Positions 4,576 to 8,632 of a stretch of DNA of 64,000 nucleotides are shown piece by piece. This DNA is from Eledone cirrhosa (Eukaryota), in NCBI GenBank assembly GCA_964016885.1, contig OZ024740.1:21390001-21454000 (forward strand), in the 5' to 3' direction. The notes below the pieces were generated by a model that saw nothing but the letters and a program-made list of their open reading frames with translations, was not told the DNA's origin and did not search any database. Numbering within the stretch: the stretch's first letter is position 1; the number at the start of each line of letters is the position of its first letter. The translations under genes were made by a program, and so were the position numbers.

Positions 4576-4762
4576 GTCTATATTGTATCTGTATTATTTT
4601 TGACCGCCGGTCAGTCAATGGCAACATTGAGGACCGAGTAAGTTAGATCGCAGATATATATATATAAAAGACAGCGAGAAGCGAAAACCAACCAAACAGT
4701 GAGTGTGTTCTGTTATTAATTCTGGCAATATTACGCAAATATGACCCTCCCCAAATATAACA

Positions 4763-5037
4763 ATATATATACATACATATACATATATATATATATATAT
4801 ATATATATATATATATATATATATATATATATACATATATATATATTCATATATATATATTCATATATATATATATATATATAAATATATATATATATAT
4901 ATATACATATATATATATATATAAATATATATAAATATATATATATATATATAAATATATATAAATATATATATATATATATATATATATATATATATAT
5001 ATATATATATATATATATATATATATATATATATATA
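4763..5037. repeat. (TA)n microsatellite
   Basis: Direct reading. Confidence 0.98.
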
Positions 5038-5086
5038 AAGAATGAATAATAACAGGTAGACATCAAAAAAGGTAATTTATTCCGTG

Positions 5087-5198
5087 TGCTTACAAATGTT
5101 TCCACGGTGGTACTGCAGCCTAGTTATGCTATGTGCAAATTTACAAGAATTTGCAGAACTCAAATATCCAATGCTGTGACCACTGTATCCTCAGAGCA
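5087..5198 (-). ncRNA. Type I hammerhead ribozyme (inverted copy of 6258-6369)
   Basis: Same fold. Core reads CTGAGGA, differing only at the variable N of CUGANGA. Confidence 0.8.
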
Positions 5199-6257
5199 GA
5201 ATGGTAAAATGTACAATGTAAATACCCTTAAGTGGGGTTGTTGGGGAAGATAGAGTAGAAAAGGAAGACAGAAAGGTAGGGGAGAGGGAGAGAGAGAGAA
5301 AGATATGCAGGGGTTGAAGAAGTAGGAGAGAGTGGTTTGTAGATATCTTAATCAAAATGTTATGGTAGGGGTCTTATTATACTGGTTACTTTTGGAGAGA
5401 TGCGTTGATAGTTAAGGTCGGAATTATTTATTGCCCCGGAGGGCAGGTTCATAGATGTGGAGAGGGAGATAGGCCAAAGGCGAGAGAGAGAGAGTGTAAT
5501 GGATGTAGAGAGAGAGGTAGAGAGGGGACAGACGAAGTTTATGTGGTGAGTGAACTTTGGGTTTGTAGTAGTAATCTATGAATTGCACTGGGTTACCATT
5601 TATAGTGATAAGCAGTGTATTGTCTTGTAGTGTGGGGGAAGAGAGGGTGGTTAGCTAGAAAGCGATGTTATAGTTACGGGTTCGAATGTTAAGTTATTTT
5701 ATAGTGAGAGAATTTAGCTTTTAGTTTGTGGTTAAGCTAAATTCTCTCACTATAAAATAACTTAACATTCGAACCCGTAACTATAACATCGCTTTCTAGC
5801 TAACCACCCTCTCTTCCCCCACACTACAAGACAATACACTGCTTATCGCTATAAATGGTAACCCAGTGCAATTCATAGATTACTACTACAAACCCAAAGT
5901 TCACTCACCACATAAACTTCGTCTGTCCCCTCTCTACCTCTCTCTCTCTACATCCATTACACACTCTCTCTCTCGCCTTTGGCCTACCTCCCTCTCCACA
6001 TCTATGAACCTGCCCTCTGGGGCAATAAATAATTCCGACCTTAACTATCAACGCATCTCTCCAAAAGTAACCAGTATAATAAGACCCCTACCATAACATT
6101 TTGATTAAGATATCTACAAACCACTCTCTCCTACTTCTCCAACCCCTGCATATCTTTCTCTCTCTCTCCCTCTCCCCTACTTTTCTCTCTTCCTTTTCTA
6201 CTCTATCTTCCCCAACAACCCCACTTAAGGGTATTTACATTGTACATTTTACCATTC

Positions 6258-6369
6258 TGCTCTGATGATACAGTGGTCACAGCATTGGATATTTGAGTTC
6301 TGCAAATACTTGTAAATTTGCACATAGCATAACTAGGCTGTAGTACCACCGTGGAAACATTTGTAAGCA
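6258..6369 (+). ncRNA. Type I hammerhead ribozyme with long stem II
   Basis: TGCT-CTGATGA-[TACAGTGGT...ACCACCGTG, 85 nt]-GAAA-C(ATTT)G-TA-AGCA. GUA cleavage triplet. AATAAA follows at 6375. Confidence 0.8.
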
Positions 6370-6564
6370 CACGGAATAAATTACCTTTTTATGATGTCTA
6401 CCTGTTATTATTCATTCTTTATATACACTCCGAAATACAGAAGGATCAGGAACTAAGTTTCTTCAACAATTCTTCCATAACTCGTAGAGTAACCTCTCAC
6501 AGTACGTCAACCATATCCAGTGTAGTAATTGACCAGTACTACATCTTGGGTAATCCTATACCTA

Positions 6565-6908
6565 ATATATATATATATATTTATATATATATATATATAT
6601 ATACATATATATATATATATAAATATATATGCATATATATATATACATATATATATATATATATATATATATATATATATATATATATATATATATATAT
6701 ATATATATATATATATATATATATACACATATACATATATATATATACACACACACATATATATACACACACACACACATACACACACACACACACACAC
6801 ACACACACACACACACACACACACACACACACACATACACACACACACAGACACACACATATATATATATATATATATATATAAATATATATATATATAT
6901 ATTTATAT
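6565..6908. repeat. Compound (TA)n/(CA)n microsatellite
   Basis: Direct reading. Confidence 0.98.
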
Positions 6909-7015
6909 GAAGGCGGCGACCGGACTAGAAACTGCTAAATGTTTGGCCGCCTTCTTGTCTCCTGCCTTTTCAGCCCCATGGATTGTGTCTATTATATTCC
7001 CTTGTTAAATTTCGA

Positions 7016-7073
7016 ATACCTGATGATGTCACCGGATTCATACTGAGCCCGGTCATTGAAATGATCATAGTAT
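7016..7073 (+). ncRNA. Type I hammerhead ribozyme within a PLE pLTR-like remnant (~6909-7271)
   Basis: ATAC-CTGATGA-[TGTCACCGG...CCGGTCATT]-GAAA-T(GATC)A-TA-GTAT. Palindromic stem III ATGATCAT, AUA triplet, AATAAA directly downstream. Base of stem II is imperfect. Confidence 0.72.
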
Positions 7074-7517
7074 AATAAAACTTAAAAGAATTACACCAGT
7101 CCAGTCTCCTGTTATTTTATAATAATTAACTCCGTACTCATACCACCAACTACACAAACGCAGACGGGTGAGTTGCATTACGTTAAGTGCTCTCCCTAAT
7201 ATTACATCAAGGTTGACTATACGGAATGACGAGTTCTATCCAGTGGTGAACCAACAAACCTAAATAATTAATATATATATATATATATAAACAATTAAGT
7301 TAAAAATGTACATCCACATATGTATACTGAAATACTAGTATGCATATGAATACACACACGTGTACATATGTAGATGTACCGAGTTTTTCACTGGTCACTT
7401 TACTGTGAGTGTCCAGCTATTCTGTATGTAAGTAAACACACAGACAAACCGGTTTTTAGAGTCATACTGGTTTTTGAGGAAACACCTTTCCTCTATTCTC
7501 CAGAAAGCCAGACAAGG

Positions 7518-7562
7518 AATATTGAACTAGTTTCGTTGTTGTTACAACTCATCAGCAATATT
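7518..7562 (-). ncRNA. Type I hammerhead ribozyme (inverted copy of 7995-8039)
   Basis: Exact reverse complement of 7995-8039. Confidence 0.9.
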
Positions 7563-7994
7563 TACCTATCTACCGGCCTTTCTGGAGAATCGTAAAAGCA
7601 CATATCGTTATATGCTTTTTCTATGAAAATTAGTAGTGGGCAGACTAATTTGCATAGAGTGTGAGTACGTACCGGTTCAACGGAGACGATAAAAACAAAT
7701 AACGAAACGAAATTAAATTTCGTTTCGTTTCGTGTATTCATATGCATACTAGTATTTCAGTATACATATGTGAATGTACATTTTTAACTTAATTGTTTAA
7801 GCGTCAGTCATACAAAAGTGAGTTACAAACGAAACGAAATTTAATTTCGTTTCGTTATTTGTTTTTATCGTCTCCGTTGAACCGGTACGTACTCACACTC
7901 TATGCAAATTAGTCTGCCCACTACTAATTTTCATAGAAAAAGCATATAACGATATGTGCTTTTACGATTCTCCAGAAAGGCCGGTAGATAGGTA

Positions 7995-8039
7995 AATATT
8001 GCTGATGAGTTGTAACAACAACGAAACTAGTTCAATATT
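7995..8039 (+). ncRNA. Type I hammerhead ribozyme
   Basis: AATATTG-CTGATGA-GTTGT(AACA)ACAAC-GAAA-C(TA)G-TT-CAATATT. 7-bp stem I, 5-bp stem II, palindromic AACTAGTT stem III, GUU triplet. Confidence 0.9.
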
Positions 8040-8331
8040 CCTTGTCTGGCTTTCTGGAGAATAGAGGAAAGGTGTTTCCTCAAAAACTAGTATGACTCTA
8101 AAAACCGGTTTGTCTGTGTGTTTACATACAGAATAGCTGGCCACTCACAGTAAAGTGACCAGTGAAAGACTTGGTACATCTACATATGTATACGTGTGTG
8201 TTTTCATATGCATACTAGTATTTCAGTATACATATGTGGATGTACATTTTTAACTTAATTGTTTAAGCGTCAGTCATACAAAAGTGAGTCACAAACGAAA
8301 CGAAATTTAATTTCGTTTCGTTATTTGTTTT

Positions 8332-8424
8332 TATATATATATATATATATATATATATATATATATATATATATATATATATATATATATATATATATAT
8401 ATATATATATATATATATATATAT
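8332..8424. repeat. (TA)n microsatellite
   Basis: Direct reading. Confidence 0.97.
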
Positions 8425-8632
8425 TGTTATACTTTGGGAGGCTCATGTTGCCAATAAAGAATCTTGCTAAACAAATTCAGAAACGAAATATATATATATA
8501 TATATTAAGACTAAAATCCAAAGAGGGCTCGATAAGGATAAATATATATCAAATATATAAGAACCGTTACTAAAATAACAGATTAAGGTTTAAGCAAAGA
8601 ATCGCTGCTTTCACCCTTAACGGGATCTTCTG
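8421..8632 (-). mobile_element. Solo pLTR/3' end of a PLE related to the 893-4234 element, with a truncated hammerhead at 8592-8632
   Basis: Minus strand reads CAGAAGA-T-CCC(GTTAA)GGG-T-GAAA-GCA(...)TGC-TT (one core mismatch, 5' stem I lost). It ends ATGAGCCTCCCAAAGTATAACAATAT, matching the terminus at 4741-4766. Confidence 0.7.

Follow-up and report, generated by a model that had tools for sequence, protein, structure and literature searches.

Two sequences in a 64,000-nt stretch of Eledone cirrhosa DNA, referred to here as the window, are probably the 3' ends of two sister families of Penelope-like retrotransposons (PLEs), E1 and E2, and each of them appears to stop about seven codons into its own open reading frame (ORF). 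They would stop there because the template was presumably RNA that a tandem copy gave by read-through. The anatomy of the two ends, their common end point and the matching layout in relatives can be read directly from the DNA. For this group it is already published that the opening codons of the ORF lie in the pLTR (PMC3846280 and PMC11167929). The features of the two ends are as follows:

4509..4536 (+), hammerhead-like core in the E1 pLTR: CTGACGA, a 6-bp stem II and GAAA
4654..4669 (+), TATA-box-like run (AT)6-AAAA, 72 nt before the E1 ATG
4741..4762 (+), 3' end of E1, likely the first seven ORF codons (MTLPKYN) and one base
4763..5037, target microsatellite of (TA)n interrupted by CA/TA impurities; the opening 8 nt make up codons 8-10 of the original prediction
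8332..8424, (TA)46 microsatellite, the target that adjoins E2 at its 3' end
8425..8446 (-), 3' end of E2, probable sister family of E1, likely the first seven codons (MSLPKYN) and one base
8488..8507 (-), TATA-like run of (TA)10 that precedes the E2 ATG by 42 nt
8609..8632 (-), hammerhead-like core in damaged form, CAGAAGA...GAAA, where E2 is truncated at its 5' edge
8633..8671, (TA)19 flanking E2 at its 5' side

The two 3' ends and their junctions with (TA)n

The original prediction described two related 30-mers that run into (TA)n at the same point, and both read as it claimed: ATG ACC CTC CCC AAA TAT AAC AAT ATA TAT at 4741-4770(+) in E1 and ATG AGC CTC CCA AAG TAT AAC AAT ATA TAT at 8446-8417(-) in E2. 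The three differences between them are also as described, a T/S change in codon 2 and synonymous changes in codons 4 and 5. The synonymous bias, two of the three changes, is not significant (7/27, calculated by hand). The common entry point was confirmed, with an alternating AT run starting at nt 23 (A of ATG = 1), inside codon 8. Because the run is perfect from that position in both E1 and E2, only 22 nt are informative and certainly derived from the element. The caveat that the last codons may come from the target was well placed, as codons 8-10 overlap the (TA)n run and are indistinguishable from target in both copies. Over the informative stretch 19/22 nt are identical (~2e-8 at fixed register), and in both copies the remaining 8 nt of the 30-mer consist of TA repeat. 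A degenerate 18-mer has two matches in the window, both exact, and shuffled sequences averaged 0.77 at up to 3 mismatches; the motif was not found at the other TA-flanked ends in 1-15700.

Upstream of the ATG the two ends had been described as not alignable, and this holds: 139 of 1000 shuffles scored as well as the real E1 and E2 upstream DNA. A hammerhead-like core had also been placed about 190-230 nt upstream of both ATGs. This stands for E1, where the core lies 232 nt before the ATG, but the E2 core is damaged and lies 186 nt before it. Stems I and III of the E1 core are unformed in the predicted fold, and Rfam gave no match to the core of E1 or of E2. The TATA-box-like run of E1 may act as a promoter. 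An A occupies position -3 of the ATG in both E1 and E2. E2 is a solo end or fragment of 208 nt between (TA)46 and (TA)19, that is, within TA repeat, and it has no ORF in the window.

Published work on PLEs suggests how such ends could be made. A tandem copy would be transcribed through its 3' UTR, hammerhead and TATA region into the next ORF, and the GIY-YIG endonuclease would nick (TA)n. Reverse transcription would then begin internally on the RNA, its start being fixed close to codon 8, and by terminating early it would give 5'-truncated or inverted copies. The 22 nt are probably conserved because they are coding, and perhaps also as part of the initiation site. The choice of target is likely set by the protein, and any putative RNA-DNA pairing would probably involve just a few TA bases.

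The terminal ATG as a candidate start of the ORF

The original prediction proposed that the ATG is the true N-terminus of the ORF, carried in the 3' pLTR. This is backed by homology, namely a profile of N-termini, matches within the clade and the layout of relatives, but an E1 or E2 read-through copy that runs from the ATG into the ORF was not found among proteins (N-terminal searches) or contigs, and the reading therefore draws on homology. On this evidence the terminal ATG is most likely the ORF start.

The DNA of 48 of 78 loci of relatives was examined. In three contigs with terminal repeats (L004, L005 and L026) the stop codon is followed by a hammerhead core and then by an ATG 73-210 nt downstream, and L009 has the same layout with a degenerate core; L004 and L026 were excluded from the codon readings. 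L006, which has 44% RT identity, ends with ATG and 21 nt, then (TA)n. Its terminal peptide, MVLATIN, has its best match in MALKPIN of P0016, which the tree places as the sister of L006 (90/84). The end of L008 lies about 25 codons inside its ORF, and the DNA there is AT-rich but not (TA)n. Three of the four ends examined, namely E1, E2 and L006, have the junction at codon 8 (nt 22-23 past the ATG), and the codon-8 end is not family-wide because L008 stops at another codon, outside (TA)n.

Among full-length relatives (50 proteins), the N-terminus is found about 200 residues ahead of conserved LPPKF. The Q of QAERL falls at residue 73-88 for 29 of the 32 relatives aligned, three more being N-truncated, and at 75-82 in the six closest. 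A direct join of the terminal peptide to LLNKTQ was rejected on this alignment, which puts about 60-66 absent codons between the two. In a profile built from 48 full N-termini, MTLPKYN scores 5.5 bits (median of true starts 2.7, leave-one-out), which places it third of 462 ATG peptides in 1-15700 and first of seven in the 3' UTR. Internal-Met peptides score as high in 0.2% of 1129 cases. The profile is noisy: two chance peptides rank above MTLPKYN, and MSLPKYN, with 4.1 bits, is outside the top 12 of the 462.

MxLPKYN has its best matches among genuine N-termini from the nearest clade (MVIPKPN, TKLPSYG, MVLPNF / MVLPSFT). Of 51 N-termini, the six that match E1 and E2 best are all within E1's 100/100 clade or cluster with it; by the author's count this clade makes up about 10 of the 51, and its members are not independent. 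The tree kept 31 rows, P0084 and P0108 having been left out because no core was found in them, and it included no reference PLE sequences.

Several searches were directed at a read-through copy and at further loci. Two N-terminal protein searches found nothing; a third returned 188 matches, the best 44% identical, and the Octopus proteins among them are without the first residues. A scan of metagenomes for the terminal pattern gave 0 matches, and scans of viral and prokaryotic contigs for related loci found none. Three pattern matches in viral contigs had no tblastn match to the E1 ORF and were taken as chance. A joint from the 3' end of E1 back to position 833 was absent among 15 of 64 joints (contigs of four runs on 826-4766), which proves nothing. 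Record 9 of run X2 has 185 letters upstream of 833.

Could the 22-mer instead be a conserved non-coding cis signal for RT binding or initiation at the end of the pLTR, with the ATG frame due to chance and the ORF starting downstream or past an intron? This seems improbable. Just seven codons are informative and chance peptides get similar profile scores; E1 has a splice-donor-like GTGAGT at 4699, and 5'-UTR introns are described for Penelope and Chlamys in the relevant part of PMC8557442. A signal of this kind is, however, hard to reconcile with conservation of 19/22 nt that begins at the ATG next to unalignable upstream DNA, with best peptide matches in E1's own clade, and with L006, where the pattern recurs although the peptide is another one, matching that of the sister of L006. 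There is also no GTRAGT between the TATA run and the ATG of E2. Less probable still is a reading in which E2 arose from the E1 end by decay or recombination and is not a second family, so that the match would reflect descent and not selection. The fragmentary E2, with its damaged core and missing ORF, fits such a history, yet decay would not leave the last 22 nt 86% identical while the other 186 nt are similar only at chance level. If the terminal ATG is indeed the ORF start, the true start of 5'-truncated Penelope families could be read from their 3' ends, and codons derived from (TA)n would have to be trimmed from ORF starts in annotation.

Element E1 and its relation to known Penelope-like families

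The E1 copy in the window consists of two parts:

1..833 (-), inverted 5'-truncated copy of E1 (RT region 2661-3460 and hairpin arm), a fold-back
834..4234 (+), E1 ORF, 5'-truncated: N-terminal helical region, Asn-rich insert, DKSG, RT and C-terminal GIY-YIG

The frame runs from 842 to 4234, with the stop at 4234, the hammerhead-like core at 4509 and the ATG at 4741. Pfam gave 0 families for the ORF, and for this reason the domains were assigned from motifs and relatives. DKSG, GSMDV, YVDD (at 3077) and VVY...YIG are present, and E1 is an EN+ PLE with RT plus a C-terminal GIY-YIG in a single ORF, the EN being at aa 993-1130. The E1 protein has 251 relatives at E<=0.001, and among named proteins the nearest come from Octopus vulgaris (71% across the RT region) and O. 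sinensis, which points to a cephalopod as the likely host.

Positions 1-800 invert 2661-3460 over 800 nt with 100% identity, the hairpin centre is at 833|834, and the 5' end of E1 is lost in this fold-back. A 7-nt duplication at 842 is private to the window copy, as it is missing in one contig each of runs X1, X2 and X7. It is also missing from the left arm of the hairpin, which reads LLNKTQAERLKH, and the frame LLNKTQAERLKH is open in other copies.

An Asn-rich in-frame insert (1337-1831, 165 aa, 50% N, aa 166-330) directly follows the conserved RW motif of E1. Inserts rich in N and S occur at the equivalent place in the Octopus relatives P0001 and P0121. In the relative L004 (493-1165), a 1632-codon frame has a 105-nt in-frame tandem repeat in the N-terminal region that matches the Asn-rich insert of E1.

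One of the closest published parallels is Pen2a_Av of Adineta vaga, whose pLTR, according to passages of PMC3846280, includes 12 aa from the start of the ORF, or 22 counting the tail, and a TATATATA box. The window elements probably share the ORF start in the pLTR, and the TATATATA box, inverted 5' copies and the long Asn-rich in-frame inserts of Pen2a_Av-related families are common to both as well. These inserts are termed there unobserved in other retrotransposons; they lie between RT and EN or between RT and thumb, whereas the insert of E1 is N-terminal to the RT core. E1 and E2 also differ from Pen2a_Av in having only about seven codons, (TA)n targets and a CX4CxxC linker. Poseidon_Ac (PAc) of Anolis, in which reverse transcription starts 111-118 nt into the ORF, has, as proposed for E1 and E2, an internal start within the ORF of a read-through RNA that gives genomic 3' ends with ORF sequence, and it resembles them in AT-rich targets and in a hammerhead or hammerhead-like core near the start codon (sections of PMC11167929). 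In PAc, as described there, the ATG is inside the ribozyme, while E1 and E2 end 22 nt past an ATG that is 186-232 nt beyond the core. Minimal hammerheads in pLTRs have been described in part of PMC4209133.

The endonuclease of E1 carries CCHH (C..C..YIG..H..H, compared by eye with the rows of Fig. S2 in PMC8557442). As in the Nematis and Neptune entries of that paper, a C-terminal GIY-YIG goes with a CX2-5CxxC linker and CCHH. The E1 linker is CX4CxxC (CTNRKCIIC, then 7 residues to the next C), and a 7-residue spacer before the first CCHH cysteine is that of the Nematis rows in the figure, the Neptune rows having a longer insert. The linker matches the Nematis type, a candidate placement made by linker spacing and not by a tree with reference sequences. 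E1 was rejected as a Naiad element, which would have an N-terminal EN and DKA where E1 has a C-terminal EN and DKS. It was likewise rejected as Hydra (no CCHH, DKT, CxCX5C linker) as it has CCHH, DKS and CX4CxxC. A preference for (TA)n is listed for Naiad_Obim, Naiad_Ovul, Naiad_Omin and Hydra-1_Obim, and four Hydra-1_Obim copies end at one site, in the relevant passages of PMC8557442. Octopus Penelope families were counted in PMC13282606, whose matched passages are without end structure.

Possible TA pairing and the surroundings of the two ends

What sets the choice of a microsatellite by Penelope elements, the protein linker or RNA pairing? In the strong form of the pairing idea, codons 8-10 (AAT ATA TAT) would be coded by the element, the RNA would pair over 6-9 nt with nicked (TA)n, and the coding sequence would set both junction and target. 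This form is compatible with the terminal ATG being the ORF start and differs solely in the mode of priming. It is doubtful. The junction at nt 22-23 past the ATG in E1, E2 and L006 fits it, and P0016 has a Tyr at position 8, where the TA run of L006 opens with TAT. All three other hammerhead-oriented ends in the window with an internal copy have in-phase element TA at the junction, over 3, 2 and 6 nt (8331, 7290 and 5039), with chances of 0.10, 0.20 and 0.006 under a sliding null. The use of repeat stretches complementary to the target is described for EN-minus PLEs in passages of PMC8557442, where Athena and Coprina are a precedent for such a stretch beside a hammerhead at the 3' end. These elements are without endonuclease and attach to telomere overhangs, while E1 has an endonuclease and its complementarity is putative. 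Against the strong form, the AATATATAT letters in E1 and E2 cannot be told from target, and a loose-end variant consensus from run X1 has TACAT after codon 5 and no AACA after codon 6 (54 contigs; agreement low, 0.63). The tandem relatives L005, L009 and L012, read in the correct frame, have at most 3 nt of alternating TA in the first 20 codons. The 6-nt overlap (5039 / 6420) is ambiguous, as two inserts with a TA run that has shrunk between them could also give it. In vitro, the priming site of PAc was not homologous to the cut DNA (a section of PMC11167929), and the preference for TA is ascribed to the CxxC linker in part of PMC8557442.

The short TA overlaps at the three other ends keep a weaker form of the pairing idea alive. 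It is a tentative suggestion that there is a (TA)n-targeting Penelope clade with a codon-8 start of reverse transcription, in which Asn, Tyr and Ile codons would be N-terminus, start of reverse transcription and target guide at once. A literature search of titles and abstract openings, outside older subscription papers and Repbase, returned nothing on coding TA homology in PLEs. A family that ends at one codon would offer a direct test in the host assembly.

PLE-type ends in (TA)n are nested throughout this region. Near-perfect fold-back palindromes lie between TA runs at 5039-6420, 8770-8845 and 9387-9717, each with a CTGANGA...GAAA core, and in the one at 6262 loop II is enlarged by a long insert. 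Two more hammerhead-like cores are found in separate TA-flanked fragments (7018-7060 and 9023-9045). A hammerhead-bearing repeat unit of 466 nt is present in tandem and inverted at 7290-8331, and its 3' end lies at either of two different points, separated by about 70 nt. The unit scores 38.6 bits with Rfam HH9 at 7984-8055 and 7573-7502, which does not reach the cut-off of 52, and it is retrozyme-like or like a non-autonomous PLE with a tail.

Two copies of a tRNA-like SINE (9125-9300 and 15178-15350) are 92% alike over 78 nt, and ARAGORN found no tRNA in them. A 13-nt AT-rich minisatellite of 170 copies occupies 12724-14892, and a 48-kb satellite with a 29-nt unit (~1663 copies) fills 15738-64000. 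On the minus strand the satellite runs directly, at ~15700, into a SINE body with a B-box-like GAGTTCGAATCCC. Because the satellite adjoins the SINE body, the 29-nt unit looks like a tandemly amplified SINE head bearing an A-box.
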